Shown here: positions 5,631 to 29,382 of the stretch, one piece after another | Numbering within the stretch: position 1 is the stretch's first letter | Layout of the letters: each line of letters starts with the position of its first letter | Assembly: GCF_964355755.1 (NCBI RefSeq) | Contig: NC_092676.1 | Span: 1,989,788 to 2,053,787, forward strand | Reading direction: 5' to 3' | Origin: Antedon mediterranea | Taxonomy: Eukaryota > Animalia > Echinodermata | Length of the DNA: 64,000 nt | Notes under the pieces: generated by a model | What the model saw: only the letters and a program-made list of their open reading frames with translations | Told to the model about the DNA's origin: nothing | Databases searched by the model: none | Position numbers and translations under genes: made by a program

Positions 5631-5752
5631 GCTCTGTCTAAACTATCAAAATAGTTTTGCTCAAATATGGTAGTGATATACCAAAATATGGCAATGATAT
5701 ATGACATCATCCTGTCCATATATGGGCACATTTTTTGTGTAGTGTAGACAGA
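5631..5752. mobile_element. Harbinger-like MITE (degenerate copy)
   Basis: gctctgtctaaactatcaaa...agtgtagacaga termini; same family as the copies in dynein introns (e.g. 53437-53575). Confidence 0.7.
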
Positions 5753-6756: not shown

Positions 6757-8247
6757 CTAATTTGGTGTTTCGTAATATTTATGCTCACCACTCTTTTTTC
6801 TTGCATTTTGTAACTTCTTGTTTTCCATCACAGTGTCAGAACTAACATAGTCAGTCTGTTCTGCTGTCTCTCCGTTCTCATTTCTTGCATTTTGTAACCT
6901 CTTGTTTTCAATCACAGTGTCAGAGCTAACATAATCAGTCTGTTCTGATGTCTCTCTGTTCTCTTTTCTTGCATTTTGTAACCTCTTCTTTTCAATCACA
7001 GTGTCTGAGCTAACATAGTCAGTCTGTTCTGCTGTCTGTCTGTTCTCATTTCTTGCATTTTGTAACCTCTTGTTTTCAATCACAGTGTCAGAGTTAACAT
7101 AGAACTGCTCAGCTTGTTCTGCTGTTTTGTCATCAACTGAACAGTAAACCTCGTCTCCTGCATTCATTTGCAGAACATCAGATGTATCATCGACACCAAT
7201 TATGTCATTGTTTCTTTGAAAGTGCACAACTGGTACAGGTGTGTTGTGATGTTTTCTCTTTTGTTGTTTATAATAACACACAACAAACACAAGTACAGCT
7301 ATCAATACGATGTTACTTGTTATCAGTATTATGGCTGAGGTTTTGTCTTGATAGTTCCCTTGATATGTTGTCATTCTGTCTGTTGGCAAGATGACATCTT
7401 TAATTGTGAATGTTAACTCATCAGATCTGTTCTGAACATCAGTACTCACCAGACACTTAACAGTGTAGTAACCAGCTGGTAAATTACTAAAGCATCTTTC
7501 ATCAGTTTTATTGTAATAATGATACTGAGATTCCTCTCCTCTCAAACTCCAGTTATAAATTGTTGTGTCGTGAGGTTTACCTTCTGCATAGCACTTGAAG
7601 CAATTCTGGTTCACATCGACTTCAGGTGTCTCATATAACCTTTTGACTTCTATCATTAATTTATGGTGAACAGTCAATGTCAATGTGTAGCAATTATTGA
7701 TATACCTAATTGAAGTACAGTAGACAAATATTCCCTCTCCAGAATGAAAACCTTCAAAAGTCTGAGTCACTGTAGTATTCTCAGTATCTGCATTATGATA
7801 CTGTGTAATGTGGCGCTTTCCTTGGATCCAACTTATTGTAACATTTGTTTTGATGTAATATTCGTTGATGATGTCACATGAAATGTTTACTTTTTCTCCT
7901 TCAATTATTGCTTTTATATTGTCACAATAAAGTTTTACATACCATGGTTGACTTATAAAACTTGTTACATTTGAAGAAGGAACCAAATAATATTGTAAAT
8001 CATCTTGACACATATGTATTCCATTTTTGGGATCAAAAGAAATGAATAGTTGGCAGTTGACATTTTTTCCAGTCAAATGAAAGGCTCTGTACTGTTTACT
8101 TGATGGTGTAATTGTCACTAGTTGCTTAGTGTATGATTTGTAATAAAACCTACTTTCAAATTGTACTAACTCCCTAGATGCTCCTCGTCTGAATATCAAT
8201 AACCATGTCACCATTACAAAGATGATATTAAGAAATTTCAAATTCAT
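6757..8247 (-). CDS. Receptor R2: intact Ig-like type-I membrane receptor (496 aa), 4 Tyr repeats, ends HKYYETPN
   Basis: Complete ORF with signal peptide, Ig-like domains, TM (AIILITSNIVLIAVLVFVVCYY), DEVYCSV, 4 x YV(N/S)SDTV repeats and a terminal YYETPN. Confidence 0.9.
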   Translation of the reverse strand: MNLKFLNIIFVMVTWLLIFRRGASRELVQFESRFYYKSYTKQLVTITPSSKQYRAFHLTGKNVNCQLFISFDPKNGIHMCQDDLQYYLVPSSNVTSFISQPWYVKLYCDNIKAIIEGEKVNISCDIINEYYIKTNVTISWIQGKRHITQYHNADTENTTVTQTFEGFHSGEGIFVYCTSIRYINNCYTLTLTVHHKLMIEVKRLYETPEVDVNQNCFKCYAEGKPHDTTIYNWSLRGEESQYHYYNKTDERCFSNLPAGYYTVKCLVSTDVQNRSDELTFTIKDVILPTDRMTTYQGNYQDKTSAIILITSNIVLIAVLVFVVCYYKQQKRKHHNTPVPVVHFQRNNDIIGVDDTSDVLQMNAGDEVYCSVDDKTAEQAEQFYVNSDTVIENKRLQNARNENRQTAEQTDYVSSDTVIEKKRLQNARKENRETSEQTDYVSSDTVIENKRLQNARNENGETAEQTDYVSSDTVMENKKLQNARKKSGEHKYYETPN

Positions 8248-9049
8248 CTTTAAAACCTCTTGATGCAGTTTATAATAACTAACTCCAAGTTCAGACGTCG
8301 TCAGAGACTGAGTGTGTTTGTAATAGTGTACAATATACCAATAAGAAAGAATATACTTGGGGGATTTTTGTGTAAAAGCAAGAAGTGTTTAAAGGGAAGT
8401 TTATACCAAGAAGATAGCATATGATTTTGGCTACTTACAATTACAGTATATTGAAACTAAAACATTTGTGCATTTTGTGAAATGAAAAAAAGAAAACAGC
8501 TTTATCTATTAATACTAGAAATGTGTCGTCCCATCACCAGAAACACAAAATAACTCCTGTCTTTTAGCAACCGCTTACTTTAATTTGATTATCAATATGC
8601 CTACTGATTGTTTGTGTTTTAATAATAGTACACATTAAGTAATTTAAGGAAGTACATTATAGAGATATTATAGGTTTCACATTACAATATTTAAAACTAA
8701 ATTGTTAAGATTAAATGCTGTACGAAAGTTTTAACATTTTTTTTTCCATAGTTGAAGGCTACTGCTCCACTGGCTATATAGCTGTTGCATTTTTTTTCTC
8801 TCTTTTGTTCAAACATTTTTTATTGCATTATGTGAACTTGTTGCTTTTCTTCTTGTTATACAGTATGATCTTGATTTAATCATGTTGTTTGTAGATTTAA
8901 ACAATTGACAAAAAAATAAAATACAAGTTTTCAATATTCTTTTGCTAAATTTTATTTATTTGTACAGACAATTTGCAGGCCTTTTATACATTTGAAGCAT
9001 AAAGTAACATTGCTGTTTTTTTACATCAGAGCATGTATACATACATCTA

Positions 9050-9340
9050 TACATTTTCATCACGTTCTGCTCTATTTGCATAGTAAGCCTCCTCTATCAC
9101 ATTTGTCTGTAGAACATCAGATGAATTCTCACCCACACTTGCACCACTGTTTCTTTGCTAGTACACAGCAGGTTGTGGTGTTGTCACGTTTATTCTTACA
9201 TTACAGCTCCACTACCCAATTTGATGCTACAATTGTTAAAGACAGTGGAAGGTATTTTGAATTGTACAAGATGTCTTGAAGCTCCTCTATGTCTGAATAT
9301 CAACAAGCAGATCACAAATAGATTAAAGGATTTCATCATT
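9050..9340 (-). pseudogene. Internally deleted receptor remnant (signal peptide joined to cytoplasmic relic)
   Basis: The reverse strand reads MMKSFNLFVICLLIFRHRGASRHLVQF and then jumps to degenerate juxtamembrane/tail-like sequence. A homologous remnant lies at about 30110-30590. Confidence 0.65.
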
Positions 9341-10050
9341 AAACCTCTCTCATTGATGCGGTTTGGTTAAATCTAACTATCAGTCCTAATGCGGCCTGAA
9401 ACTGTTATTTGTATTTATAAACTAATTTTATTTACATTTTATACAGAAAGTCTAGGTTTGTAATATCACAAGGAAGAATATATATTTAGTATTGCTAATA
9501 TACTTGAAAACAATAATGACTGTTTTCTATAAAGATTAAAAGCACAAAAACATCTTCTGTATTTGTTATTTTATTATAATTTTACATATTTTTGGTTTTT
9601 AGAATTGTTTTACTGTAACTTCCACAATCCTCCAATCAAATGATCCAATCTAAAATAATGATAATTTAATTCGAAATATAATTTTGTTGTTGCTATTATA
9701 GTCTTATTTCACTATAGGGATATGTTCCAATATTTAACAAATACACCACCAAAGCATTACTAATGTTATATGGTATTATAAAAACACCAAACAATATCAA
9801 ATTTATGCAGTACAGTACATAAAACACATTTTTATAATTAAAAATCACAAATTAATTTTCCCTGTGGTTTAGAAAGAGTTTGGAATTATGGCTATAATTG
9901 TATATATTACATTTTTTTTTCCAAATTGGTATTATTAATATTTAAATAATATTTATTAAAGATAAACAGTCTTCCCCTCTGATTGAGAACTTACTATATT
10001 TTATTTTATCTATTTTCCAATGAAATGTTACATACTGCCTATTATTTGAT

Positions 10051-12048
10051 TCAATCAGTGTCAGAGTTACCATAGTCAGTCTGTTCTGATGTCTCTCTGT
10101 TCTCATTGCTTGCATTTTGTAATCTCTTCTTTTCAATCACAGTGTCAGAGTTACCATAGTCAGTCTGTTCTGATGTCTCTCTGTTCTCATTTCTTGCATT
10201 TTGTAACCTCTTGTTTTCCATCACAGTGTCTGAGCTAACATAGTCAGTCTGTTCTGCTGTCTCTCTGTCCTCATTTCTTGCATTTTGTAACCTCTTCTTT
10301 TCAATTACAGTGTCTGAGCTAACATAATAGTCAGTCTGTTCTGCTGTCTCTCTGTTCTCATTTCTTGCATTTTGTAACCTCTTGTTTTCCATCACAGTGT
10401 CTGAGCTAACATAGTCAGTCTGTTCTGCTGTCTCTCTGTTCTCATTTCTTGCATTTTGTACCCTCTTCTTTTCAATCACAGTGTCAGAGCTAACATAGTC
10501 AGTCTGTTCTGATGTGTCTCTGTTCTCAATTCTTGCATTTTGTAACACCTTCTTTTCAATCACAGTGTCCGAGGTAACATAGTCAGTCTGTTCTGGTGTC
10601 TCTATGTCCTCATTTCTTGCATTTTGTAATCTCTTGTTTTCAATCACAGTGTCTGAGTTACCATAGTCAGTCTGTTCTGTTGTCTCTCTGTTCTCATTTC
10701 TTGCATTTTGTAGCCTCTTCTTTTCAATCAAAGTGTCAGAGCTAATATAGTCAGTCTGTTCTGCTGTCTCTCTGTTCTCATTTCTTGTGTTTTGTACAGT
10801 CTTTTCTTCAATCACAGTGTCAGAGCTAACATAAAATGCATTTTCAGCTTCTTCTGCTATATTATCATCAATCGTAAAGTAAATTTCTTCCTCTGCAATG
10901 GTTTGTGGTGTGTAAGAAATGTCATGCACACTAATTGTGTCATTGTTTCTTTGGTAGTTTACAACAGGTACAGGTGTGTTGTGATGTTTCTTATTCTGTT
11001 GTTCATAACAACACACAACACAAACTAGTAAAACTATTAGTATGGTGTTACTTGTTACCAGTATTATGGTTATTTTATTGGGCTTCTGATTTGTATTTGT
11101 AGCTATTGGCATGTTATCATTGGAGGTTATGTATTGGTTGTTGCCTTGGAGTGTTGTCATTCTCTCTGTTGCCATGACATCTTGAATTGTGAATGCTATC
11201 TCATCAGATCTGTTTTGAACATCAGTACTCACCAGACACTTAACAGTGTAGTTACCAGCTGGTAAATTACTAAAGCATCTTTCATCAGTTTCATTGTAAT
11301 ATTGATTCTTGAATTCCTCTCCTAGGCCTTTCAAACTCCAATTATAAATTGTTTGGTCACCAGATCCACCTTCTGCATAGCACTTGAAGCAATTCTTGTT
11401 CACATCAACTTCAGGTGTTGTATATAACCTCTTAACCTCTACCTTTAATTTAGGGTGAACCAGCAATATCAATGTGTAGCACCTTATGCTCCTATTGGGT
11501 GAGTAATAATATAAAATACAGTGGACAAATATTCCTTCTCCAGAATAAAAACCTTTAAAAGTCAGATTTATTGTAATGTCTGAATCTTCACTATGAAACT
11601 GTGTAATGTTGTGTTTTCCTTGGATCCAACCAATTGTTACTTCATATTGGTTAATGTTATATTTTCTGATGTCACATGAAATGTTTACTTCTTCTCCTTC
11701 AATGATGTCTTTTATATCTTCACAATCAGCTCTTACAAAGTCTGGTTGAGCTCTTCTCCATTGTATATCATCCGATGAAGGAAGCAAATATTGTAAATTA
11801 TCATCATCGTAACATGTGTATATTCCTTTTTGTTGTTGACCAAAGGAAATAAGAAGTGGGCATTTAATTGTGACGTCTCTTCCGTACAAATTATCCAAGT
11901 CCTGTAAACTTGATGGTGTAATTATCACAGGTAGCTCAGTGTATGATAGATAATAAAACTCTCTTTGAAATTGTACAAGATATCTTGAAGCTCCATGTCT
12001 GAATATCAATAAACAAGTCACCAAAAGATTAAGCAATTTTAAATTCAT
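10051..12048 (-). CDS. Receptor R3: intact Ig-like type-I membrane receptor (665 aa), 9 full plus 1 partial Tyr repeats
   Basis: Complete ORF; TM ITIILVTSNTILIVLLVCVVCCY; EEEIYFTI; repeat variants TDYVSS, TDYGNS, TDYISS, TDYVTS and TDYYVSS. Confidence 0.9.
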   Translation of the reverse strand: MNLKLLNLLVTCLLIFRHGASRYLVQFQREFYYLSYTELPVIITPSSLQDLDNLYGRDVTIKCPLLISFGQQQKGIYTCYDDDNLQYLLPSSDDIQWRRAQPDFVRADCEDIKDIIEGEEVNISCDIRKYNINQYEVTIGWIQGKHNITQFHSEDSDITINLTFKGFYSGEGIFVHCILYYYSPNRSIRCYTLILLVHPKLKVEVKRLYTTPEVDVNKNCFKCYAEGGSGDQTIYNWSLKGLGEEFKNQYYNETDERCFSNLPAGNYTVKCLVSTDVQNRSDEIAFTIQDVMATERMTTLQGNNQYITSNDNMPIATNTNQKPNKITIILVTSNTILIVLLVCVVCCYEQQNKKHHNTPVPVVNYQRNNDTISVHDISYTPQTIAEEEIYFTIDDNIAEEAENAFYVSSDTVIEEKTVQNTRNENRETAEQTDYISSDTLIEKKRLQNARNENRETTEQTDYGNSDTVIENKRLQNARNEDIETPEQTDYVTSDTVIEKKVLQNARIENRDTSEQTDYVSSDTVIEKKRVQNARNENRETAEQTDYVSSDTVMENKRLQNARNENRETAEQTDYYVSSDTVIEKKRLQNARNEDRETAEQTDYVSSDTVMENKRLQNARNENRETSEQTDYGNSDTVIEKKRLQNASNENRETSEQTDYGNSDTD

Positions 12049-12959
12049 CTTGAAAAACCTTTGTAATGATGCAATTTGTGAAAATCCAACCTTTAAATTC
12101 CGATGCGGTCAGAGACGAAGTTGTGTTTGCAACGTCTTTTTACAGTACAGAAACATAGAAAATATATTTACTTTATTTGAGTTTGTTTTTTTGCTACAAT
12201 AACAAAACTAATTTTATGGCGAAACTTATAAAGATTTAACTTTAATATACGTAGTGTTTGACAAGTTATCTCATAATTGCTTCTGTTATATTATCAAGGA
12301 GTTGTGTTTTTGCTACAATAACAAAACTAATTTCAGTGAAATATTGATACTGATTGACAATAATATTTAGCATAATTGTTTATTTGTCTTCTGTACTGTA
12401 GCTAGTTTTAATCTCTTTCAACTAAATGCTCTTGTTTTAGCTTTCTAATCGCATCTCATTTTATTTCAGTTTATTGAATTTTTAAAATAACAGTGGACTT
12501 AAATTTAAAAAGTTACCAGAAAACAATATGAAGATTTAACCCAAGAAAGTTTTAAAAGAAAATATTATTTCTATTGAGGTCCTCACAGTCTATCCAATTT
12601 TACTACCTGCAATCTCAATGTTGTGGAAGATCAAAGCATACAGATAAACAGTACAATAGTGGCCTATGTTTATGTTATATTATTAGAAGTACTGGATTAG
12701 AAACAATGTTGGTTTCGGTTTTGAAAATGTTAAACTTTACATTATCTTGACCTGTATGTAGATTAATAATAATATCATCCATCAAAAGCCCTATACTAAT
12801 ATAGTAAACAATGCAATCTATGTCTTTGAAGAGAAATATTATATTGTATATAAGCCTGACATTTGTTCATTTACCAAGGAACAAACTATTCATGCAGACA
12901 AAAGAAGAAGGTTTATATTAAAATATCATAGACGGACAATAGATACATAATAGACTAAA

Positions 12960-13230
12960 CTTATGTTTCTCTACTCATCGATTAACTCCCTAAACCCACC
13001 TCAATTTACAAATTTATTCCAACCAAACGCATCTTTTCACAATTATAGAACTCGAACTGTACAGGATATGCATATCCCTCTTCATAAAAAAACATCATTT
13101 CAATATAACATAAGATTTAGTGGACCTAAACTATGGAATAAACTACCTTCAAATATTAAAGTTGCTGTATCTAAGAAAAGCTTTTCATTTAAACTTAAAA
13201 GATATATCACATCCAAGTATTAATTTTTAT
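12960..13230 (+). mobile_element. CR1/L2-group LINE 3'-end fragment
   Basis: ORF 12963-13223 reads HNYRTR...FSGPKLWNKLPSNIK..S..SF..KLKRY, the typical C-terminus of CR1/L2-group ORF2. Confidence 0.75.
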
Positions 13231-13892
13231 TATATTACATTTTATGATAATAATTTTAATCATATTACCTTTCTTTACACCATTTTGTAGACTGTTTTAT
13301 TTTTAAGAAAATAAATGTTACTTTGAATCGAATATGTATGTATACTGTACATTCAGTTATTGTTATTTACATATTTATTCTCTTATTGTAAATTACACAT
13401 ACTAATATAATAATAATAAATACTTTATTTTAACACGGAAAAGCTTGTGTCACTATAAAGGTGTTCTTCTACAAGGCCGCGATCAACTAACAGTAATACA
13501 TTACAAATTTAAAAATAACAAATGAGAGAACAAAATATATACAGTAAACAGAAACATTAATTACATTTATGCTAGGAGTACAAAATAAATTACACCAATA
13601 ATTTTTTTAAAGTATTTAAATTTGTGGCATTTTTCTTTACGGGAGCCCGGTACCTGATGATTGAAGAGTGATTTTTATCACCTTCATGTAAAGTCTGCAG
13701 TTTGCAATAACATGTTGACATTTTAACCGAGTCATTTATTTATCTATATTGTATACAGTGTATTATAACCTTGCCTTTTTTCTAAATAAATTTAATTAAA
13801 TATCATTTTCCATTGATATTTAATGTTATTGATACATATTTTCAAATTATTAGGAATTCAGTGGGCCTACAAATTAATACAGTTTTTCAATA

Positions 13893-15272
13893 TTATTTAT
13901 GACATCCTCTATCATCATTTCTTGCATTTTGTAATCTCTTCTTTTCAATCACAGTGTCAGAGCTAACATACAACTGTTCAGCTCGTTCTGCTGTCTCTCT
14001 GTTATCAATTCTTGCATTTTGTAACCTCTTCTTTTCAATCACAGTGTCAGAGCTAACATAGAACTGTTCAGCTTGTTCTGCTGTCTGTCTGTTCTCATTT
14101 CTTGCATTTTGTAACTTCTTGTTTTCAATCACAATGTCCGAGTTAACATACAACTGTTCAGCTTGTTCTGCTGTTTTGTCATCAACTGAACAGGGAACCT
14201 CGTCTTCTTCATTTATTTGCAGAACATCAGATGTGTTTCCCGCACTAATTGTGTCAGCGCTTCTTTGAAAGTGCACAACTGGTGCTGGTGTGTTGTGATG
14301 TTTTCTCTTTTGTTGTTCATAAAAACACACAACACACACAAGTACAGCTATCCATATGATGTTACTTGTTACCAGTAGTATTTTTATTTTAGGCTTCTTG
14401 GTATTAGTATCTTGAATTGTGAATGCTATCTCATTAGATCTGTTCTGAACATCAGTACTCACCAGACACTTCACAGTGTAGTCACCAGCTGGTAAATTAC
14501 TAAAGCATCTTTCATCTGTCTCTAGCTGGTCATCATTCTCTGTCAATTCTTCCTTATTCAAACTCCAATTATACATTTTCTTGTCATCAGATCCACCTTC
14601 TGCATAGCACTTAAAGCAATGCTGGTTCACATCAATTTGAGGTGTTTCAGAGTATAACCTTTTAACATCCACCTTTAATTGAAGGTGAACTGTCAATATC
14701 AATGTGTAGCAGTAAATATTTCTATTTTTTAAAATGCAGTAGAAAAATACCCCTTCTCCAGAATGAAAACCTTTTAAAGTCTGATTAATTGTAACAGTGT
14801 CAGTATTTGTATGAAGAGTCTGTGTAATGTTGTGCTTTCTTTGGATCCAACCAATTGTCACTTTATAATTGATGTTACGATTTCTGTTCATGTTACATGA
14901 AATATTTAATTCCTCTCCTTTAATGATGTCTTTCATATTGTCACAGTAAAGTTTTACAAGTTTTGGTTGAACTGCAAACCATACCTGTACATTGGACGTC
15001 GGATTCAAATATTGTAATCTATCCTTTTGACATGTGTATATTCCTGTTTTGTTACCAAAAGAAATAAAAAGTGAACATTTAACTGCAACATCTTTTCCAC
15101 CCACATGAACTATGTTCTGTTTACTTGACGATATAATTCTCACATTTATTTTGGAGTTTGATGAGTAATAAAATCTTCTTTCAAATTTCACCAACTTTTT
15201 TGACGCTCCATGTCTGAATATCAACAACCAGGTCACAAGTACAATAATGATATTAAGGAATTTCAAATTCAT
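13893..15272 (-). CDS. Receptor R4: intact Ig-like type-I membrane receptor (459 aa), short stalk, 3 Tyr repeats with 30-aa spacing
   Basis: Complete ORF; short stalk IQDTNTKKPK; proximal Tyr replaced (DEVPCSV); 90-bp repeat period (cttgcatttt at 13921, 14011, 14101). Confidence 0.9.
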   Translation of the reverse strand: MNLKFLNIIIVLVTWLLIFRHGASKKLVKFERRFYYSSNSKINVRIISSSKQNIVHVGGKDVAVKCSLFISFGNKTGIYTCQKDRLQYLNPTSNVQVWFAVQPKLVKLYCDNMKDIIKGEELNISCNMNRNRNINYKVTIGWIQRKHNITQTLHTNTDTVTINQTLKGFHSGEGVFFYCILKNRNIYCYTLILTVHLQLKVDVKRLYSETPQIDVNQHCFKCYAEGGSDDKKMYNWSLNKEELTENDDQLETDERCFSNLPAGDYTVKCLVSTDVQNRSNEIAFTIQDTNTKKPKIKILLVTSNIIWIAVLVCVVCFYEQQKRKHHNTPAPVVHFQRSADTISAGNTSDVLQINEEDEVPCSVDDKTAEQAEQLYVNSDIVIENKKLQNARNENRQTAEQAEQFYVSSDTVIEKKRLQNARIDNRETAERAEQLYVSSDTVIEKKRLQNARNDDRGCHK

Positions 15273-16247
15273 CTTTAGAACTTCTCTGTCTTGATGCAGT
15301 TTATAATAACCAACTCCAAGTCCAAATGTGGTAAGAGACTGAATGTGTTTGTAATAGTGTATACCAACAAGGAAGAATATACTTCAAGGGTTTGTTAAAG
15401 GTTTTTAACAGGAAGTCTTTAAAGGAAAGTTTATGCCAAGAAGATAGAATATGATTTTTGCTACTATAAAATTTGTGCATTTTGTGAAATGAAAAATTTA
15501 CAGCTTTACAACAGCTTTACCTAATAATACTAGATGTGTCATCCCACAAACACAAAATAATCCGTCTTTTAGCAACCACCTACTTTAATTTGATTATCAA
15601 TATGCCTACTGATTGTTTGTGTTTTAATAATAGTACATTCGGTAATTTAAGGAAGTACGTTATTGGATATTATAAGCTCTCCCATTACAATATTTAAAAC
15701 TAAATTGTTTAGATTGAATGCTATACGGATATTTTAACGTGTTTTTTTTTCATTATGTGAACTTGTTGGTTTCCTTCTTGTTATATGATCTTGATTTAAT
15801 CATGTTGTTTGTAGATTTAAACAATTGAAAAAAAAAAACAAAATACAAGTTTTCAATATTATTCTGTTGCTAAATTTTATTTATTTGTACAAGACTATTT
15901 GCAAGCTTTTTACATTTGAAGCATAAGTAACATTTAAGTTTTTTTACATCACAGCATGGACATATAACATTATGTATTTTCATCATGTTCTGCTGTGTCA
16001 TTAATTTCATAGTAAACCTCCTCTTCCGCATTTGTCTGTAGAACATCACATGAATTCTCACCCACATTGGCACCACTGTTTCTTTGATAGTACACAGCAG
16101 GTTCCCCTCTGAATGAGAACGTATTTATTCTATCTATTTTTCCTGTGGAATGTTACAATCACAGTGTCAGAGCTAACATAGTCTCTCTGTTCTCATTTCT
16201 TTAATCCTCTTCTTTTCAATGACAGTGTCTAACATAGGTTAATTTAA

Positions 16248-17402
16248 TTATTCTGCTGTATGATCATCAATTGAACAGTAAATCTCATTCTTTTCAATGG
16301 TTTGCGAAACATTCAAAGTGTCACCAACACTAATTGTGTCATTATTACTTTGAAAGTGCACAACAGGTACAGGTGTGTTGCGATAGTTTCTCTTCTGTTG
16401 TTCATAACAACACACAACAAACACAAGTAAAACTATCAGTAGGCCTATGATAGTGCTTGTTACAAATATTATGGTTATTTGATTAGTGTTCTTGCATTTT
16501 GTCGGCATGCCAAATTTGATATCTTGAAATGTTGTTATTCTTTCGGTTACATCTTTGATTGTGAATGCTAACTCATCAGATCTGTTCTGAACATCAGTAC
16601 TCACCAGACACTTGACAGTGTAGTTACCAGCTTTTAAATTACTAAAGCATCTTTCATCACGTTCATTGTAATTATATTGAGTCATGATCCCCTCTCCTCT
16701 TAGTCCCCAATTATAAATTGTTTTAATACCAGATCCAACTTCTGCATAGCACTTAAAGCAATTCCGGTTCACATCAACTTTAGGTGTTTCATATAACCTT
16801 TGAACCTCTACCATTAATTGAGAGTGAACCATCAATATCAATGTGTAGCAGTAAATACTTATATTGTTTAAAATACAGTAGAAAAATATCCCTTCTCCAG
16901 AATGAAAACCTTTTAAAGTCTGATTAATTGCAACAGTGTCAGTATCTGTACGAAGAGTCCGTGTAATGTTGTATTTTCCTTGGATCCAACCAATTATCAC
17001 TTTATATCGGATGGTATAATTTCTGTTCATTTTACATGAAATATTTAATTCCTCTCCTTTAATGATGTCTTTCATATTGTCACAATAAAGTTTTACACGT
17101 TTTGGTTGAACTGCAAACCATGTTACCTGTACATTGGACGTCGGAACCAAATACTGTAATCTATCCTTTTGACATGTGTATATTCCTGTTTGGTGACCAA
17201 AAGAAATTAGAAGTGGACATTTAACTGCAACATTTTTTCCAACTATTTTCCGTTTACTTGATGTCATTTTCACAGTTATTTTGGAGTTTGATGAGTAATT
17301 AAAACTTCTTTCAAATTTTACCAACTCTTTTGAAGCTCCATGTCTGAATATCAACAACCAGGTCACAAGTACAAAGATGATATTAAGGAATTTCAAATTC
17401 AT
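16248..17402 (-). CDS. Receptor R5: Ig-like type-I membrane receptor (384 aa) with short tail and no in-frame repeats
   Basis: Complete ORF; N-terminal half close to R4; TM IIFVTSTIIGLLIVLLVFVVCCY; NEIYCSI then stop; scrambled repeat relics at about 16155-16235 after the stop. Confidence 0.85.
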   Translation of the reverse strand: MNLKFLNIIFVLVTWLLIFRHGASKELVKFERSFNYSSNSKITVKMTSSKRKIVGKNVAVKCPLLISFGHQTGIYTCQKDRLQYLVPTSNVQVTWFAVQPKRVKLYCDNMKDIIKGEELNISCKMNRNYTIRYKVIIGWIQGKYNITRTLRTDTDTVAINQTLKGFHSGEGIFFYCILNNISIYCYTLILMVHSQLMVEVQRLYETPKVDVNRNCFKCYAEVGSGIKTIYNWGLRGEGIMTQYNYNERDERCFSNLKAGNYTVKCLVSTDVQNRSDELAFTIKDVTERITTFQDIKFGMPTKCKNTNQITIIFVTSTIIGLLIVLLVFVVCCYEQQKRNYRNTPVPVVHFQSNNDTISVGDTLNVSQTIEKNEIYCSIDDHTAE

Positions 17403-18289
17403 CTTTAGAACTTCTCTGTCTTGATGCAGTTTATAATAACCAACTCCAAGTCCAAATGTGGTAAGAGACTGAATGTGTTTGTAATAGTTTACTATACCAA
17501 CAAGGAAGAATATACTTCAAGGGTTTGTTAAAGGTTTTTTACAGGAAGTCTTTAAAGGGAAGTTTATGCCAAGAAGATAGAATATGATTTTTGCTGCTAA
17601 TATTCAAACTATAAAATTTGTGCATTTTGTGAAATAAAAAATTAAACAAAAACAGCTTACTGATAACTGTACCTACAGTTAATACTAGAAATGCGTCATC
17701 CCATCACCACAAACACAAAATAACCCAGTCTTTCAGCAACCGCCTACTTTAATGTGATTATCAATATGCATAACTGATTGTTTGTGTTTTAATAATAGTA
17801 CATTAAGTACATTATAGAGATATTATAGGTTTCGCATTACAATATTTAAAACTAAATTGTTCAGATTGAATCCTGTACGGAAGTTTTAACATTTTTTATT
17901 GCATTATGTGAACTTGTTGCTTTTCTTCTTCTTATACAGTATGATCTTGATTTGTAAATTTAAACAATTGAGAAAAGTTTTCAATTTTCTTTTGCTAAAT
18001 GTTATTTGCAAGCTTTTTATACATTTGAAGCATAACGTAACATTTATGTTTTTTACTAATACCTACTTTAATTTGAAGACAAATAATATTTTCCAACTAC
18101 AAGATACAGTACATCATTATTGTTTTTGTTATATTATTAGTACATTAGGTACTGTATGTCTTGCTTGGTATATAAGGGTGTTGGTTTCTGTGTTTGTTAG
18201 ATTATATTGATTTGATCATGTTGTAGATTCAATTCGCAAACAATCAAACAAACTAATCTGGCGTTTCATAATATATGCTCACCACCCAC

Positions 18290-19370
18290 TCTTTTTTCTT
18301 GCATTTTGTAACCTCTTGTTTTCAATCACAGTGTCAGAGCTAACATAGTCAGTCTGTTCTGCTGTCTCTCTGTTCTGATTTCTTGCATTTTGTAACCTCT
18401 TGTTTTCCTTCACAGTGTCAGAGCTAACATAGTCAGTCTGTTCTGCTGTCTCTCTGTTCTCATTTCTTGCATTTTGTAACCTCTTGTTTTCAATCACAGT
18501 GTCTGAGCTAACATAGTCAGTCTGTTCTGCTGTCTCTCTGTTCTCATTTCTTGCATTTTGTAACCTCTTGTTTTCAATCACAGTGTCAGAGCTAACATAG
18601 TCAGTCTGTTCTGATGTCTCTCTGTTCTCATTTCTTGCATTTTGTAACCTCTTGTTTTCAATCACAGTGTCAGAGCTAACATAGTCAGTCTGTTCTGCTG
18701 TCTCTCTGTTCTCATTTCTTGCATTTTGTAACCTCTTGTTTTCAATCACAGTGTCAGAGCTAACATAGTCAGTCTGTTCTGATGTCTCTCTGTTCTCATT
18801 TCTTGCATTTTGTAACCTCTTCTTTCCAATCACAGTGTCAGAGCTAACATAGTCAGTCTGTTCTGCTGTCTCTTTTTTCTCATTTCTTGCATCTTGTAAC
18901 CTCTTCTTTTCAATGACAGTGTCTGAGCTAACATAGTCAGTCTGTTCTGCTTTCTCTCTGTTCTCATTTCTTGCATTTTGTAATCTCTTCTTTTCAATTA
19001 CAGTGTCTGAGCTAACATTATAGTCAGTCTCTTCTGCTGTCTCTCTGTCCTCATTTCTTGCATTTTGTAATCTCTTCTTTTCAATCACAGTGTCTGAGCT
19101 AACATAGTCAGTCTGTTCTGCTTTCTCTCTGTTCTCATTTCTTGCATTTTTTAACCTCTTGTTTTCAATCACAGTGTCAGAGCTAACATAGTCAGTCTGT
19201 TCTGCTGTCTCTTTGTTCTCATTTCTTGCATCTTGTAACCTCTTCTTTTCAATGACAGTGTCTGAGCTAACATAGTCAGTCTGTTCTGCTTTCTCTCTGT
19301 TCTCATTTCTTGCATTTTGTAACCTTTTCTTTTCAATCACAGTGTCAGAGCTAACATACAACTGTTCAGC
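18290..19370 (-). repeat. Coding minisatellite, 84-bp/28-aa unit TDYVSSDTVIE(K/N)KRLQNARNENRETAEQ, 13 copies (longest array)
   Basis: Counted from the translated ORF; length of about 1080 bp matches 13 x 84 bp. Confidence 0.95.
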
Positions 19371-21374
19371 CTGTTCTGCTGTTCTGTCATCAACTGAACA
19401 GTGAACCTGATCGTCTTCTGCATTCATTTGCAGAACATCAGATGTGTCTCCCGCACTCATTGTGTCAATGTTTCTTTGAAAGTGCACAACTGGTGCTGAT
19501 GTGTTCTGATGTTTTCTCTTTTGTTGTTCATAAAAACACACAACACACACAAGTACAGCTATCAGTATAATGTTACTTGTTACTATTAGTATTGTTATTT
19601 TAGGCTTCTTGGTATTAGTATCTTGAATTGTGAATGCTGACTCATCAGATCTGTTCTGAACATCAGTACTAACCAGACACTTAACAGTGTAGTCACCAGC
19701 TGGTAAATTACTAAAGCATCTTTCATCAGTTTCATTGTAATACTGGTATTCCTCTCCTCTCAAACTCCAATCATAAATTCTCTTGTCACCAGATCCACCT
19801 TCTGCATAGCACTTGAAGCAATTTTGGTTCACATCAACTTCAGGTGTTTCATATAACCTTTTTACTTCTACCTTTAATTTGGGATGAACAGTTAATATCA
19901 ATGTGTAGCAAGTAATCCTATAATTGGTATTGGTAAATTTAATTGAAGTACAGTAGACAAATATTCCCTCTCCAGAATGAAAACCTTCAAAAGTCTGATT
20001 AACTGTAGTATTCTTAGTTTCTGCATTATGAAACTGTGTAATGTTGTGTTTTCCTTGGATCCAACTTATTGTGACATTAGTTATGATGTTATATCTCTTG
20101 ATGATGTCACATGACATATTTACTTCCTCTCCTTCAATCATATCTTTCATTTCATCACAATAAAGTTTTACATACTTTGGTTGACTTCTTCTCCATGTTA
20201 CATTTGATGAAGGAACTAAATATTGTAAACTATCATCATCTTGACATGTGTGTATTCCTTTTTTGTGATCAAAAGAAATGAAAAGTTGGCAGTTGACATT
20301 TTTTCCAGTCAAATAAAAGGCTCTTTACTGTTTACTTGATGGTGTAATTGTCACAGGTTGCTTAGTGTAAGATTTCATTAGGCGCAGGAGCCCCGGATAG
20401 CGTTACGTTTGAAAACCCCAAAAAGTGAGGTTTTCAACCATTAGCGGCATGACTGATGTGAGTGATTAATGTGTTTTACGGACGGTTTCAAGGACTATCC
20501 TACCAGTGGGCTGTTCACTGGTCAAATGATTGACACTTTGTATCACCGTTTGTAACTGGAGCTGTGACGACCTTTGTAACTGGAGCTGTGACGACCTTGC
20601 AAGAATACTAGGCCAGAATTTTTAATTGAAAAGTGCCTTGGTATTAACAATAACATGGAGATGGAAACAAATTTGTCTATCTTTCTTTCTAAAATAAATG
20701 GTCACTATAGTTTCAAACTAGGCTTAGTCCACCACATTAGTAATTACGAATCGAAACCTAAATTAAAATTGTTGGTATTCTTTGGCCGTTGTTTGATTAA
20801 TTACATCTTCATGCCATGTTTTTTTTTTTCTCTAATGATTTGGCGATACGCTCCTATATTAATTAGGCCTACTAGCAGAGGGTTCGATGAGTTTTGAAAA
20901 GTTATGGAAATGTGGTCTAACATATAGCAATTCAGTTTTTTAAGGCCCTTCTTCCTTGTCCGAGCCTTTGGAAATATTAAAAAGTTATATTAATATAATA
21001 TATTCTGTGTTTTCATGTTTTGAGAAATTGTATATCATTTCAGATGTTTCGCGCTGCGCTTTTATTTGTTTCGCGCTTCGTCTAGTTCGAGCTTCCTCCG
21101 TACATACCGATAATTAATATGATTTTTCATTTCATTTTTTGTACATCATTAACAAATAGCATACAGAACCCCATACAGAACATACCCTTCTCTGAGAAAA
21201 CACTTGTGGGCGATTCCCCGAATACGACATGATGGAATAGCTTTGGAGACTTTGACTTTGGAGTAGGCCTAAATCGAAACGTCAAGCAACTCAACAGTTC
21301 TTTTCAGAACTAATATAGGCCTACGTGGTGTACCGCAAATTTATTTCAACAAATATGTAACTTGTTTAGCACGT

Positions 21375-22740
21375 TTAAAATGGATAGCAAACCATATTTT
21401 TAAAAAAAACCTGAATTATTTCAAACAGACAGCACATTAGTTCAAACAGATAGCACAATAGATAGCTCAATCAAATGGATGATATAACTGTACTGTGCAT
21501 TCTATACGGATTATCGGGTAGCACGTTCTTTCAAATGGATAGCACATTTTTTCAAATGGATACTGTAGCACATTCTTTCAAATGGATAGCACATTATTTC
21601 AAATGGATAGCACATTAGGTAGCACAATCAAATGGATATAGTACTGTACATTATTCTATGATTATCGGGTAGCACATTCTTTCAAATGGATAGCACATTA
21701 GGCCTATTTCAAATGGATAGCACATTCTTTCAAATGGATAGCACATTATTTCAAATGGATAGCACATTATTTCAAATGGATAGCACATTATTTCAAATGG
21801 ATAGCACATTGGGTAGCACAATCAAATAGATATAGTACTGTACATTATTCTATAAGGATTATCGGGTAGCACATTATTTCAAATGGATAGCACATTATGT
21901 AGCACAATCAAATGGATATAGTACTGTACATTATTCTATACGGATTATCGGGTAGCACAGTCTTTCAAATGGATAGCACATTAGGTAGCACAGTCAAATG
22001 GATATAGTACTGTACATTATTCTATACGGATTATCGGGTAGCACATTCTTTCAAATGGATAGAAAATTATTTCAAATGGATAGCACATTCTTTCAAATGG
22101 ATAGCACATTATTTCAAATGGATAGCACATTATTTCAAATGGATAGCACATTAGGTAGCACAATCAAATGGATGTAATTGTACTGTACATTATTCTATAC
22201 GGATTATCGGGTAGCACATTCTTTCAAATAGCACATTATTTCAAATGGATAGCACATTATTTCAAATGGATAGCACATTGGGTAGCACAATCAAATGGAT
22301 ATAGTACTGTACATTATTCTATAAGGATTATCGGGTAGCACATTATTTCAAATGGATAGCACATTAGGTAGCACAATCAAATGGATATAATTGTACTGTA
22401 CATTATTCTATAGCCTACGGATTATCGGGTAGCACATTCTTTCAAATGGATAGCACATTCTTTCAAATGGATAGCACATTGGGTAGCACAATTAAATGGA
22501 TCATAGTACTGTACTGTACATTATTCTATACGGATTATCGGGTAGCACATTCTTTCAAATGGATAGCACATTATTTCAAATGGATAGCACATTAGGTAGC
22601 ACAATCAAATGGATATAATTGTACTGTACATTATTCTATACGGATTATCGGGTAGCACATTCTTTCAAATGGATAGCAAATTATTTCAAATGGATAGCAT
22701 GGATTTGGGTAGCACAATCAAATTGAGCACATTGGGTAAC
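21375..22740. repeat. Composite tandem repeat (about 20-bp TCAAATGGATAGCACATTAT/CTT units interleaved with a longer GTACTGTACATTATTCTATACGGATTATCGGGTAGCAC unit)
   Basis: Directly visible; lies inside the TIR element. Confidence 0.9.
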
Positions 22741-22779
22741 GCATTGCATCAAATGGGAGCCTACTGTACAGTTATTCTA

Positions 22780-22955
22780 TTGAATTGAATTGAAATATAT
22801 ATTTATACTGGGTAACCTCTTCAGTCAAAGACTGGTCTCCCAGGGGGCTCAGTTGGTGATCAGTGGCTGTGATGTACTAATACACCGGGGTAACCCCCCA
22901 CTCGTCTCGAAAGATGTACTAGGTTCTTTAAAGTACACACGAGCTAGATGTGTAT
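22780..22955 (-). mobile_element. SINE 3' fragment (same family as 63195-63480)
   Basis: Shares ctcttcagtcaaagactg..gatcagtggctgtgatgta..ctcgtctcgaaagat and a (GAATT)n tail with the copy at 63195-63480. Confidence 0.75.
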
Positions 22956-24619
22956 TCTATTAACGGGTGTAGCACATTAAAATTGAGAGGATAAGATGGA
23001 CATCATAATTTATTATTAAGGGGAAAAACAGCAAATCCTTACTGAGGGGACACTCCTATAAAGCGGACATTAAGGGGACGGGGAACATTTAAGCTCAGTG
23101 CCAATGTTCACTCAATATATTTTCCATCACAAAATAACAAAAAAGACGAAATATTTATATCCATTTATCGTTATTAAATAAAAATGGATATCATGATAAT
23201 TATGATACTTTGTTTGTCTTGAAAGTTTTCATTGGTGAAACGTTGCCTGCTACATTTTGAATTTCCGAGTCCAGATCAGTATTGGTATTGGTTTTCCGTG
23301 ATCTATTCTAACTAATGAAACAATTTTTAGAAAATGATATATCTGATAGATATCATCTAAGTGATGTTTTACATATAAGTTATAACGTTTAACTTTTCAT
23401 TCTCCATACATTCAATTCTTTTAATATAGTTCTTGTATAACACCATATCAAGTAGTAGTAGAAATTGTTGAATTGAAGGGTTTTCTTATTATTCAGTCAA
23501 TTCAGTGTTTCTATACAGAAAAGAGTAGTCAGTGGCCTTAACATCAATTAATTGTATAATTTGCACCCAAGGTCGAATAGCAAGAAACTCAGGTCCAGTT
23601 ACATTGGTGTTCATTGGTCAATAGGAAATGAACAGCACACTTATGGGTGGTGACAAAGTTTAGTTATTGATAAGTTGTCCTTGGGAAAAACACATTAGTT
23701 GGGTTGACCATGGGCTGACAGAGTTAACGACTTCGTAACGCTATCCGGGGCTCCTGCGCCTAATGGTAATAAAACCTACTTTCAAATTGTACCAACTGTC
23801 GTGATGCTACTCCATGTCTGAATATCAACATCCAGGTCACCATTGGGCCTACAAAGATGATATTAAGGAATTTCAAAGCCATCTTTAACCTATTGATACA
23901 GTTTATAAATAACCAACTAAATAACCAGACGTCGTCAGAGACTGAGTTTGTAATAGTGTACAATACTAAGAAGGAAGAATATACTTAGGGAATTTTACAG
24001 GAAGTCTTTAAAGGAAAGTTTATGTCAAGAAGATACAGTAGAATATGATTTTTGCTGTTAATATTCAAACTGTAAAATGTGTGCATTTTGTGAAATGAAA
24101 AGTTAAACAAAAACAGCTTACTGGTATTAACTGTACCTACAGTTAATACTAGAAATGTGTAATCCCACCACCAGAAATACAAAATAACCCTGTCGTTTAG
24201 CAACCACCTACTTTAACTTGATTGTCAAGATGGTTCATAAAATGTTTGTGTTATATTATTTATAGTACATTAAGTACAGTAATTTAAGGAAGTACATTAT
24301 AGAGATATTATAGGTTTCTCATTACAATATTTAAAACTAAATTGTTTAGATTGAATCCTGTACGGAAGTTTAAAATTTTTTTTTTTTTGCATTATGTGAA
24401 CTTGTTGCTTTCCTTCTTGTTATATAATCTTGATTTAATCATGTTGTTTGTATATTTAAACAATTGAAAAAAAAAAATACAGGTTTTCAATATTCTGTTG
24501 CTAAATTATATTTATTTGTACAAGACAATTTGCAGGCTTTATACATTTGAAGCATAAAGTAACATTTGTGTTTTTTACATCACAGCATGGACATATAACA
24601 TCTATGTTAATTTGTCGTT

Positions 24620-24960
24620 AATTGCATAGTAAACCTCCTCTTCTGCATTTGTCTGTAGAACATCAGATGAATTCTCACCCACACTTGCATCCCTGTTTCT
24701 TTGATAGTACACAGCAGGTTGTGATGTGTGTTTGTGCAATCATCAGTATAATATTACTTGTTAGTATTATTTGTTACTTAATTAGTATCCATGGTTGGCG
24801 TGGTATAATTGATATCTTGAGTTGTTGTCTTCATTCTTTCTGTTTTGCATTGTACCGTACCTTCAATTGTGCCTTGGAGTGTTGTCATCCTCTTTGTTGG
24901 CATGATGACATCTTTAATTTTGAATGCTGTCTCGTCATGAGGTGGTTTCTCGAAAGATTG
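24620..24960 (-). pseudogene. Receptor remnant (stalk/TM/tail relic)
   Basis: The reverse strand gives DETAFKIKDVIMPTKRMTTLQG.., then TM-like and tail-like degenerate sequence. Confidence 0.6.
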
Positions 24961-25029
24961 TAAAATCAAAAACGGTACTGGGTATCACCAACTAGCATAG
25001 CTAACATAAAAATGTTCATTTTATTCATC

Positions 25030-26223
25030 ATTCATCTGTGTGATTAACAATTGAACAGTAAATCTCATTCTTTTCAACAGTTTGCGAAACATTCAAAGTG
25101 TCACCAACACTGATTGTGTCATTGAATCATCTTTTTATACATTATGATTTACTGTATTCTATCTCTAAAAAAAAATAAAAAAATAATTATTTATAAAACA
25201 TCAGAAATTATAATGTTTTTTACTCAAATATGAATGAAAGAAATAAATGTTTATTTGAATTGAATTGAATTGTTTCTTTGATAATGCACAACTGGTACAG
25301 GTGTGTTGTGATGTTTCTACTTCTGTTGTTCATAATAACACACAACAAACTTGAGTAAAACTATCAGTATGATGTTACTTGTTACTAGTATTATGATTAT
25401 TTTATTAGTTTTTATGTTCACCATTCTGTCTGTTTGCATTGTAAACCCTATCTCATCCGATCTGTTCTGAACATCAGTACTCACCAGACACTTAACAGTG
25501 TAGATTGAAGCAATTCTGGTTCACATCAACTTTAGGTGTATCATACAACCTTTGAACCTCTACCTTTATTTGAGGCTGAACTGTTAACATCAATGTGTAG
25601 CACCAAGTGTCTAAACAATTGTTAATTTCAATTGATAAACAGTAGAAAAATATACCTTCTCCGGAATAAAAACCTTTAATAGTTTGAGTATAGCTAATAT
25701 TTCTTTCAGTATTTGAACTGTGGAACTCTGTAATGTTGTACACTCCTTGGATCCAACCACTTGTGACATTATATTTGATAAGATTCTTTCTGATAATACA
25801 TGTAATGTTTACTTCATCTCCTTCAATGATGTTTTTCAAACTTCCACAAAAGACTTTTTCATCATATTTTTCTGATTTAACTTCAGATGAAAGAAAAACA
25901 TATTGTAAATGGTCATCATCTTCACATGTATAGATTCCTTGTTTTTGTTTATCAAAAGATATAAATAATGGACATTTTATAATGAATTGTTGTGTCAAGT
26001 AATTGTTGAACATACGCTGTCCGTTCTCGCCTTTGTTAAAGTATTTACCACCCACATTAATCTGGAACTCCTTACTTGATGTTATGATTGTCACAGGTTG
26101 TTTAGAATCTGATGAGTAAAAGAAATATTAATGAGATCCATCAGGTGATTTTTAAGTTCCGTGTCTGAACATTAGCAAGCAGGTCACTATTCCAACGATG
26201 ATGTTAAGGAATTTCAAAGTCAT
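25030..26223 (-). pseudogene. Receptor R7: frameshifted, partly deleted pseudogene
   Basis: ATG at 26223; ORF 25492-26094 keeps KCPLFISF..GIYTC..VNITC..GWIQG..FFYC..CYTL. The membrane-proximal domain is deleted between NCF and YTVKC, and the tail is interrupted by an insert ending in (GAATT)n at about 25125-25272. Confidence 0.85.
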
Positions 26224-27741
26224 CTTTTAAAAAAAGAAATGTATTGACCCGTGTGGAAATCCCAGAGAAACAGTGTCATTTGCTTTTACTTTGCGTTTGA
26301 TTAAAGTACAGAAAGTGTAGGTTTATATTTAATATGGCAATAAGAAAGTACAAATATTATACTGTACTTAGTTTTGTTTTGATTTTTGTTGTTTGCACAT
26401 TTTGGTATTTTACTCAAACATGAGAAAAGAATGTATGCCTTGCTTGTAACAATTACTGTAAATAGAACAATTACAAAAACACAAAACATTTATTTCTTTT
26501 CTTATTTAGATGATTTTATTTATAAATAAATCGTCATGCAAATATAATTTTTTTTCCCAGAATAACATTGTCAATTAGTCAAATTTATTTTTTCCAATTA
26601 AAACTATTTTCTAGGCTAACAAAAAAAAATGAATGAAATTTATTTTGAGATAAGTCATAGTGAAGAAGAAAAATCTGTGTGGTATAGATGCAATACAGTA
26701 CAAGTAGATTAGATATAGATTTTGGAACAACAAAGACAGACAATATGAACATAAACAGTCAAGAAGATTTTAATAATATATTAATCTATGATGATTTAAT
26801 TCGAAATGTGTATATCTTATTTCTCTAGGAATATGTTTCAACATTAAATAGGTTCAAAATAGCCAAATCATTACTAATTATAAAAACATCAAACTTACAG
26901 TACAATATCACATTTGTTCAGTGACATAACTACAATTAAAAATCACATGAACTGATCATAAATAATATCTTTATTCTGTGAAAAATTTGCAGACTTATAG
27001 ACTACAGTATATTCTTCATCTACAGTAATAACTATTTAAAAATTAATTATTAATTTACAGCACTGGGCTGTTCAGAGTTTCATGGCTGTAAAATATATAC
27101 ATGTATATTAATATATATTTTTGTATTTGAATTCAATGAGAACTTATTTTACTCTATCTATTTTTCCAGTAAAATGTTACCTATATTTAACATAATACAT
27201 GATGCAAAATGTGCTGTCAAAAGTAGCCCCCCCCCCCCCCACCTCTCCAAGCAACTGTCTTACTTTAATAAGACCAATAATATTTTTTATTTAATTGTGT
27301 TTTATTTGTACATTAAGGAAGTATCAACCACTTTCCTTTTAATTATATTTAAACCTAAACTAATGTTTTACATTTATTGCTGTACGAAAGTCTAACTACT
27401 GTAACAACATTTCATTGCACCACTACCGGTATGGAAGGTGACAAATCTAAATTAACAATTTCATCAGGAAATTTGTTCCAAATGCAAATAAACTCATTAA
27501 AAAGATTCATTCGGTTGGTATTCCAAATAAAATATAATAGTTAATTATATCTCAACCGTAATAGTAATAGTAAATAACGATTATTTTATTTACCTGACGT
27601 TTCGCCAACTATCAAATAAACTAAACAAAATAAAGACTTCTTACTTTAAACATTACCAGTTGAACCAATGTGTGTTCAAAGATATTTATAGCTAATTTTG
27701 GTTTCAATTTTTCTTTTGTATTATTGGGACTCCAGTACAAA

Positions 27742-29382
27742 CTAATTTGGTGTTTCGTAATATTTATGCTCACCACTCTTTTTTCTTGCATTTTGTAACC
27801 TCTTGTTTTCCATCACAGTGTCTGAGCTAACATAGTCAGTCTGTTCTGCTGTCTCTCTGTCCTCATTTCTTGCATTTTGTAACCTCTTGTTTTCCATCAC
27901 AGCGTCAGAGCTAACATAGTCAGTCTGTTCTGGTGTCTCTCTGTCCTCATTTCTTGCATTTTGTAATCTCTTCTTTTCAATTACAGTGTCTGAGCTAACA
28001 TAGTCAGTCTGTTCTGCTGTCTCTCTGTTCTCATTTCTTGCGTTTTGTAGCCTCTTCTTTTCAATCACAGCATCAGAGCTAACATAGTCTGTCTGTTCTG
28101 ATGTCTCTCTGTTCTCATTTCTTGCATTTTGTAACCTCTTGTTTTCAATCACAGTGTCAGAGTTAACATACAACTTTTCAGCTTGTTCTGCTGTTTTGTC
28201 ATCAACTGAACAGTAAACCTCATTTTCTGCATTAATTTGCTGAACATCAGAAGTAATACCAACACCAATTGTGTCAATGTTTCTTTGAAAGTGCACAACT
28301 GGTACAGGTGTCTTTTGCTGTTTCCTCTTTTGGTATTCATAACAGCACACTACACACACAAGTAAAACTATCAATATAATAATATTTGTTACCAATATTA
28401 TGGTTGTTGTATTAGGTCTCCGAGACTGTGTAGGCATGTCGTCATTGGAGGTTTTGTCTTGATAGTTGGCTTGATATGTTGTCAGTCTGTCTGTTGAAAA
28501 GATGCTATCTTTGAGTGTAAATGCTATCTCATCAGATTTGTTCTGAACATCAGTACTCACCAGACACTTAACAGTGTAGTTACCAGCTGGTAAATTACTA
28601 AAGCATCTTTCATCAGTTTCATTGTAATACTGATACTGGAAGTCCTCTCCTTTCAGCATCCAATTATAAATTGTTTTGTCACCAGATCCACCTTCTGCAT
28701 AGCACTTGAAGCAATTCTGGTTCACATCAACTTCAGGTTTTTCATATAATCTTTTAACTTTTATTTTCAATTGAGTGTGAACTGTTAATATCAATGTGTG
28801 GCAGTAGATACTCACATAATGGGTATACTTGAATGACATGCATACAAAAAATAATCCTTCTCCAGAATGAAAACCTTTAAAAGTCTGATTAAATGTAGTG
28901 TTCTTGGTATCTGTTTGATGAAACTGTGTAATGTTATGCTTTCCTTGGATCCAACCAATAGTGACATCATTTTGGATGTAGCCATATTTCTTGATCATGT
29001 TGCATGAAATGTTTACTTCCTCTCCTTCAATGGCGTCTTTCATATCTTCACAATAAAGTGTTATGTATGATTGAGATAGGTCCCATGTTCTATGTACCCT
29101 CAATGAACGTCGCAAATATTGTAAATTATAATCATCTTGACATGTGTATATTCCTGTTTGGTTACCAAAAGAAATGAAAAGTGGACATTTAATTCTGAAA
29201 TCCTTTCCACTTATACGAAATACATCATATTTACTTGATGATTTGATTGTCACAGGTTGCTTAGTGTATGATTGGTAATAAAACCTTCTGTCAAATTGTA
29301 CAAACTCTCTTGAAGCTCCATGTCTAATTATCAACAACTAGGTCACAAGTACAAAGATGATATTAAGGAATTTCAAAGCCAT
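27742..29382 (-). pseudogene. Receptor R8: otherwise intact gene (5 Tyr repeats, ends HKYYETPN) with a single TGG>TAG stop in the signal peptide
   Basis: ATG at 29382 reads MALKFLNIIFVLVT then TAG (29340-29338) where R4 and R5 have TGG. The rest (ORF 27742-29337) is fully open. Confidence 0.85.

Follow-up and report, generated by a model that had tools for sequence, protein, structure and literature searches.

The closest described systems to the locus reported here are clusters of cell-surface receptors in other invertebrates. In the parts of PMC12582321 covered here, the Botryllus fester family and FcoR are presented as clustered, diverse type I receptors of the immunoglobulin (Ig) superfamily in an invertebrate deuterostome, in which intergenic recombination mixes ectodomains and tails; the FcoR tails combine motifs resembling the hemITAM (half of the immunoreceptor tyrosine-based activation motif) with unassigned tyrosine motifs. 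The Hydractinia Alr locus (PMC9546547, covered in part) is likewise a cluster of unusual Ig superfamily receptors, with genes and pseudogenes and with tyrosine motifs in the tails. Here we describe a locus of similar general organisation in the crinoid Antedon mediterranea. The window, a stretch of 64,000 nucleotides (NC_092676.1, positions 1,989,788 to 2,053,787 of the forward strand), is AT-rich animal DNA in which ten minus-strand paralogs, R1 to R10, present as genes or remnants, span 3.3 to 36.5 kb. They are tandem duplicates, each apparently with a single exon, and their translations indicate that they likely encode surface receptors of the type I membrane class. The cytoplasmic tails carry a tandem array of a tyrosine-containing unit whose copy number differs between paralogs, and we consider the chances about even that the unit provides weak phosphotyrosine docking, with copy number setting avidity.

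It is the organisation of the tails that separates this locus from the two described clusters. The paired core-2 tyrosines of Botryllus FcoR, 29-33 residues apart, recall the spacing of 28-30 residues in the Antedon tails. However, FcoR has 1-4 core-1 motifs, multi-exon tails and switching by splicing and alleles, and a tandem DNA array is not described in the sections of PMC12582321 covered. The Hydractinia tails, according to the same portion of PMC9546547, contain canonical immunoreceptor tyrosine-based activation and inhibitory motifs (ITAMs and ITIMs) and defy alignment because of their diversity, whereas the Antedon tails consist of homogenised repeats and have no such motifs. Literature searches by title and abstract opening, with most subscription papers outside their coverage, returned no paper on this receptor family and none on receptor tails with variable tyrosine repeats, and the family appears to be undescribed in the literature searched.

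The repeat unit is 28 residues, or 84 bp, long, and the arrays match at 90-94%. Counting anchoring tyrosines gives one unit in R1, four in R2, 10 in R3 (the last one cut), three in R4, 13 in R6, five in R8 and one in R10, or 39 anchors in total when one relic anchor past the stop codon in each of R5 and R9 is included. Tandem-array and tyrosine counts thus bear out the number per paralog, from one in R1 to 13 in R6, given in a preliminary description of the locus, which had been drawn at 6757..28200, so that R1 and R10 fall outside it. The range of 0 to 13 given there is overstated, as it combines open genes with pseudogenes: its values of 13 (R6) and five (R8) come from broken copies. Four of the ten copies are broken (R6, R7, R8 and R9), and the unbroken ones (R1, R2, R3, R4, R5 and R10) have 0 (R5), 1 (R1, R10), 3 (R4), 4 (R2) or 10 (R3) units. 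The zero assigned to R5 is correct for the sequence ahead of its stop, a TAA at 16248-16250 that is common to R9, but two frameshifted relic units follow that stop. With an in-frame tandem array that differs in copy number between paralogs, the locus is a coding variable number tandem repeat at the paralog level.

Within arrays the reading frame is kept. All 30 spacings between units are multiples of 3 (26 of 84 bp, two of 87 bp and two of 90 bp), and none of 36 units contains a stop, where about 2.0-2.8 would be expected. The relic units past the R5 and R9 stops have gaps that are not multiples of 3, and the frame keeping of the arrays can usefully be judged against them. The frame-keeping indels of the preliminary description therefore stand for the interior of the arrays, but not for their ragged ends: R1 is cut by a long interspersed nuclear element (LINE), R3 has lost 2 bp, and R6 and R10 have each gained 4 bp.

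Constraint within the unit is concentrated around the tyrosine. We compared the core YVSSDTV with the remaining spacer, a division chosen after the result for the whole unit was known, in 36 units, a set that omits the cut last unit of R3 and the relics in R5 and R9. The core has 7 synonymous and 7 nonsynonymous alleles, with a ratio of nonsynonymous to synonymous rates (omega) of 0.33-0.39, against 5 and 30 and an omega of 1.4-2.1 in the spacer (p 0.017-0.037), which weakly suggests a short linear motif within an unconstrained linker. The fact that the tyrosine never changes could, by itself, be due to chance, since four further codons likewise have no amino-acid change. Elsewhere in the gene there is purifying selection (omega 0.38 in domain 2, 0.44 in the transmembrane helix and 0.47 in the juxtamembrane part). 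The heads evolve faster, at a pooled omega of 0.67-0.76, which is below 1, and positive selection on them was not seen at this pooled level.

The same pattern bears on whether the array could be a scaffold or spacer, structural or phosphorylated on Ser/Thr, instead of a phosphotyrosine array, which we regard as improbable. The constrained core does include three Ser/Thr residues, and a single-sequence model of the R3 tail gives one long strand per unit. However, that model has a mean predicted local distance difference test (pLDDT) score of 52, was made without an alignment and is likely a repeat artefact, and an unconstrained spacer is contrary to expectation for a folded repeat.

The distribution of tyrosines defines three tail types: proximal tyrosine plus array (R1, R2, R3 and R8), array only (R4, R6 and R10) and proximal tyrosine only (R5 and R9). 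The proximal site, which the preliminary description did not contain, is an acidic YxxV/I (core-1-like) motif 42 residues from the membrane in five of eight tails; R4, R6 and R10 are without a proximal tyrosine. The R3 version, EEEIYFTI, is nearest to a hemITAM, and none of the eight tails matches [ED][ED][ED]xYxxL, the definition in PMC12582321. The ITIM ([ILVS]xYxx[ILV]), the ITAM (Yxx[LI]x6-12Yxx[LI]) and the immunoreceptor tyrosine-based switch motif, or ITSM ([TS]xYxx[VI]), have 0 matches in the eight window tails, in agreement with the earlier statement that the main unit is none of these. In the R6 and R10 tails the units supply the only tyrosines, and in the R4 tail the last three, which argues that in the array-only subtype the units would carry the signal.

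A subset of units has a recognisable docking sequence. Phosphotyrosine-x-Asn (pYxN) is the consensus of Grb2-family SH2 domains, and in LAT-type adaptors several such sites bind these domains cooperatively (PMC6669380, in the part covered). The LAT sites, however, are not tandem repeats, and the Grb2-type sequence proposed earlier for these tails, although present, is a minority feature: YxN occurs in just 7 of 39 units, 5 of these in unbroken copies.

An unbroken copy reads, in one frame, as a predicted signal peptide, an N-terminal region, two beta-sandwich domains, a variable stalk, one transmembrane helix and the tail. The hallmark of the Ig superfamily is a Cys-Trp-Cys core with a DxGxYxC-like F strand. 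Both domains have these features (ISC..W..GEG.F.YC in domain 1 and FKC..W..AGDYTVKC in domain 2), and their Cys-Trp-Cys cores are kept in the paralog alignment. The structure model, whose mean pLDDT is 53, does not resolve the N-terminal region and places the sandwich domains at residues 102-195 and 196-286. At this pLDDT they match Ig, FN3 and other sandwiches (Z up to 7.9; best Foldseek E 2e-5), with no single clear best match among these folds. None of the Pfam V, I, C1 and C2 sets scored above cut-off in eight copies, Ig matches lying below it only (E 0.014-0.09), and Atlas neighbours are Ig proteins at 0.89-0.90. The two domains of each receptor are predicted to be Ig-like, without assignment to a set.

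Relatives outside the window are few. When 1.84 billion representatives were searched with HMMER, 5 sequences matched. Two of these are real homologs, uncharacterized proteins of Antedon mediterranea, and they were also all that a profile search recovered. The first, XP_071957072.1 (P0001), has the same ectodomain, with 81% identity to R4, and stops ahead of the transmembrane helix. The second, XP_071950092.1 (P0002), has the same ectodomain at 33-40% identity to the window copies and a transmembrane helix; this distant paralog is without the array, and its C-terminal end has a DYV and a YY. The remaining three HMMER matches were rejected: one was a bacterial-type sandwich match of short length, and the other two reflected repeat composition. 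A word-based search with R2 as query had no match, and a sequence search of solved structures found nothing significant (best E 0.075). No homology to Botryllus FF/FcoR or Hydractinia Alr surfaced in these broad searches, in which the two Antedon proteins were the only real homologs, and no direct comparison was made.

Sequence exchange between the paralogs is indicated by several comparisons. Units are equally close within and between genes (p 0.25), and concerted evolution within genes was rejected on this result. R2 unit 3 and R6 unit 8 differ at 1 of 75 bases, as do R3 unit 6 and R6 unit 11, while the juxtamembrane parts of paralogs with such near-identical units are only 70-87% identical. 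At synonymous sites, units from different genes are separated by a distance of 0.18, compared to 0.30-0.54 for other gene parts. The tree of the heads groups R2 with R6 and R4 with R5, with full support, and the tree of the transmembrane and juxtamembrane parts groups R4, R6 and R10 (eight copies, R7 and R9 being left out). Approximately unbiased (AU) tests reject the head clades in the transmembrane/juxtamembrane tree (p 1.6e-8 and 0.005) and the reverse (p 7e-71). Because Ig heads and membrane/tail modules give conflicting trees, we conclude that parts have been swapped between paralogs. The arrays of R2, R4 and R8 all open with a YVNS unit. The recombinational origin of count differences that had been proposed earlier is supported by the near-identical units, by a higher-order duplication in the R6 array and by the exchange between paralogs. 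Unequal crossover and gene conversion would change unit number and would swap heads, proximal-tyrosine state and arrays between paralogs.

How might such tails work? Ligand binding would cluster the receptors, a Src-family kinase would phosphorylate tail tyrosines, and SH2 proteins would then bind, with the YxN units recruiting Grb2-type proteins and the proximal site a Syk-like kinase. By analogy, immune or self/non-self recognition would be the most likely role of the family; we infer this role, the kinase and the SH2 partner from established knowledge of similar receptor clusters. Setting avidity by the number of tyrosine repeats has a precedent in Helicobacter CagA, where recombination likewise drives the copy number of a tyrosine segment of about 30 residues, EPIYA-C, and where a second copy raises SHP2 affinity about 100-fold and further copies add less (PMC5408210, in the part covered). 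An important difference is that CagA is a bacterial effector with allelic variation and measured binding, whereas the Antedon units belong to host receptor paralogs, have another motif and are known from sequence alone.

A number of observations weigh against a docking array of this kind. The whole 25-codon unit has an omega of about 1 (10 synonymous and about 38 nonsynonymous alleles in 30 full units). The constraint on the seven tyrosine-proximal codons, which lends weak support to the docking role put forward in the preliminary description, is not significant when the test is confined to the 18 units from unbroken copies (p 0.08-0.13), nor is the lack of stops (P 0.06-0.14). The majority unit, YVSS with Ser at +3, fits 0 of 8 known consensus patterns scanned, the terminal YYETPN is kept in only two of eight tails (R2 and R8), and the longest array, of 13 units, sits in the dead copy R6. 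Confidence in the ectodomain model is low (mean pLDDT 53, best Z 7.9), and the groups used in the AU tests were named only after the identity table had been inspected.

Several of these points would suit an alternative that we hold to be a lesser, though real, possibility, in which the receptors are real and signal through the proximal YxxV/I and the terminal YYETPN, and the array is a tolerated, mutation-driven expansion whose count is near-neutral. The omega of the whole unit, the ragged array ends, the non-canonical main unit and the highest count in broken R6, with units that are recent and near-identical, are all in its favour, as is a short-tail type found in both R5 and R9 and also in a sequencing run of another study. 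However, R4, R6 and R10 have neither the proximal tyrosine nor the terminal motif, and depend on the units for the tyrosines noted above. The concentration of constraint on the tyrosine core also speaks against a near-neutral count. A fuller version of the docking model, which we offer as speculative and rather doubtful, is that of combinatorial innate receptors in crinoids. Recombination would independently shuffle the Ig head, an on/off proximal tyrosine and the tandem phosphotyrosine array, and signal strength would be set heritably by repeat number, through an SH2 or PTB domain whose specificity has gone unrecognised.

We compared R1 to R6 with contigs from public sequencing runs. Runs X3, X5 and X6 come from two studies, and X3 may be the source sample; X8 is from another study, was treated as DNA and covers intergenic stretches. 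A contig in X8 bridges the R5 stop, and this, together with the presence of the stop in R9, indicates that the short tail is a stable subtype. At the position of the R6 stop, contigs of X3, X5 and X6 have a tyrosine, with 4, 2 and 5 differences from R6 compared to 10, 5 and 7 expected from R2; an R6-like copy without that stop therefore exists. X3 contigs also run past the R6 insertion site into gene sequence, possibly from R2 or another paralog. The junction of R1 with the LINE is also in X8, the R3 end is bridged in X3, and the R4 end is bridged without gaps in X3 and X8. The run contigs are too short to span any array, so the counts are those of the assembly itself. Even so, we think it highly improbable that the counts are assembly artefacts: differences among units are patterned, the arrays are no longer than 1.1 kb, and run contigs cross the ends of the arrays in R1, R3 and R4 as well as the R5 stop.

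The cluster could also be mostly silent and decaying, or its arrays could go untranslated through splicing, for example from a donor at the KCLVS codons that would give soluble forms. The four broken copies, and the mobile elements carried by several copies, fit such a state. A donor-like CTG|GTGAGT lies at these codons (e.g. 7449, 11232 and 14462) in seven of eight copies scanned, and the RefSeq model XP_071957072.1 departs from homology exactly there, a hint of either a soluble isoform or a gene-prediction error ahead of the transmembrane helix. On the other hand, the transmembrane and juxtamembrane parts beyond the site retain an omega of 0.44-0.47, and XP_071950092.1 reads through it into a transmembrane helix. 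In addition, no GT[AG]AG donor occurs between the transmembrane helix and the array end in eight copies, so the array alone is unlikely to be spliced out. We consider a silent or spliced-out array unlikely, if marginally less so than a scaffold. The individual copies are listed in Table 1.

Table 1. Receptor copies, arrays and an inserted element, with positions counted from the first letter of the window.
Feature	Position	Strand	Description
R1	3315..4613	-	Open frame, 432 residues; proximal Tyr site and 1 unit; LINE remnant cuts tail
R2	6757..8247	-	Complete, 496 residues: signal peptide, two predicted Ig-like domains, transmembrane helix, proximal Tyr site, 4 units, terminal YYETPN
R2 array	6797..7102	-	84-bp period; 4 Tyr units, YVNS in first
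R3	10051..12048	-	Open frame, 665 residues; hemITAM-like EEEIYFTI; 10 units, 2-bp loss cuts last
R3 array	10056..10833	-	84-bp period; longest among unbroken copies; YGNS in three units
R4	13893..15272	-	Open frame, 459 residues; proximal Tyr to Pro; 3 units, 90-bp period, 13907-14174
R5	16248..17402	-	Open frame, 384 residues; short tail, proximal site as sole Tyr feature
R5 relics	16150..16247	-	Two frameshifted, decayed units past R5 stop
R6	18279..23882	-	Broken: insertion and TAA at 20325-20327; proximal Tyr to His; 13 units, 18295-19358
Element in R6	20376..23765	.	3390 bp; perfect 32-bp terminal inverted repeats, target duplication absent; within coding sequence
R7	25200..26223	-	Pseudogene: stops, domain 2 deletion, array absent
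R8	27742..29382	-	Broken: TAG at 29338-29340 in signal peptide; 5 units, 27782-28170; terminal YYETPN
R9	31150..33072	-	Short-tail-type pseudogene; insert of ~620 bp; relic units past stop common to R5
R10	35308..36501	-	Open frame, 389-397 residues; proximal Tyr to His; 1 unit

The broken copies differ in how they are interrupted. The first ~40 codons of R6, at 23882-23766, are followed by the 3390-bp element and then by a TAA at the position of a tyrosine in R2; the element is high-copy, has 21-, 86- and 113-bp satellites inside and is without a long open reading frame. In R8 the TAG is codon 15, and the next in-frame ATG lies 98 codons downstream. The R9 insert (31678-32300) sits at the YTVK|CLVS site and has short GC-rich inverted ends. 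Broken LINE-like remnants, their class judged by translation, lie at about 2500-3300 and 34158-34895, the first of them truncating R1. A short, very high-copy element of inverted-repeat character at 5658-5731 is found in the dynein introns too. A fourth tail type survives as four relic juxtamembrane blocks, at about 8950-9200, 15950-16110, 24560-24740 and 30080-30330; two have EEEVYY, and each was duplicated along with the region upstream of the gene that follows.

The plus strand from ~39.3 kb is occupied by a dynein heavy chain gene (39329-64000), axonemal and 5/8-like, which stands head to head with the receptor cluster. Its first mapped exon, at 39329, leaves about 115 N-terminal residues to be encoded elsewhere, so that the cluster may lie in an intron of this gene. 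A 32-bp minisatellite at 44642-46691 has 64 copies at 99% identity, and its unit includes an apparent 5' splice site of a dynein exon (AGG|GTATGT), so that the donor is present 64 times.

Crinoid immune receptors are nearly undescribed. The cluster offers, on a single receptor scaffold, a natural series of near-identical tyrosine sites that number 0, 1, 3, 4 and 10, with which the effect of site number on signalling threshold can be tested directly. If the count should be neutral, the locus would still represent a new lineage-specific Ig-like family with birth-and-death evolution and head-tail shuffling, parallel to those of Botryllus and Hydractinia.

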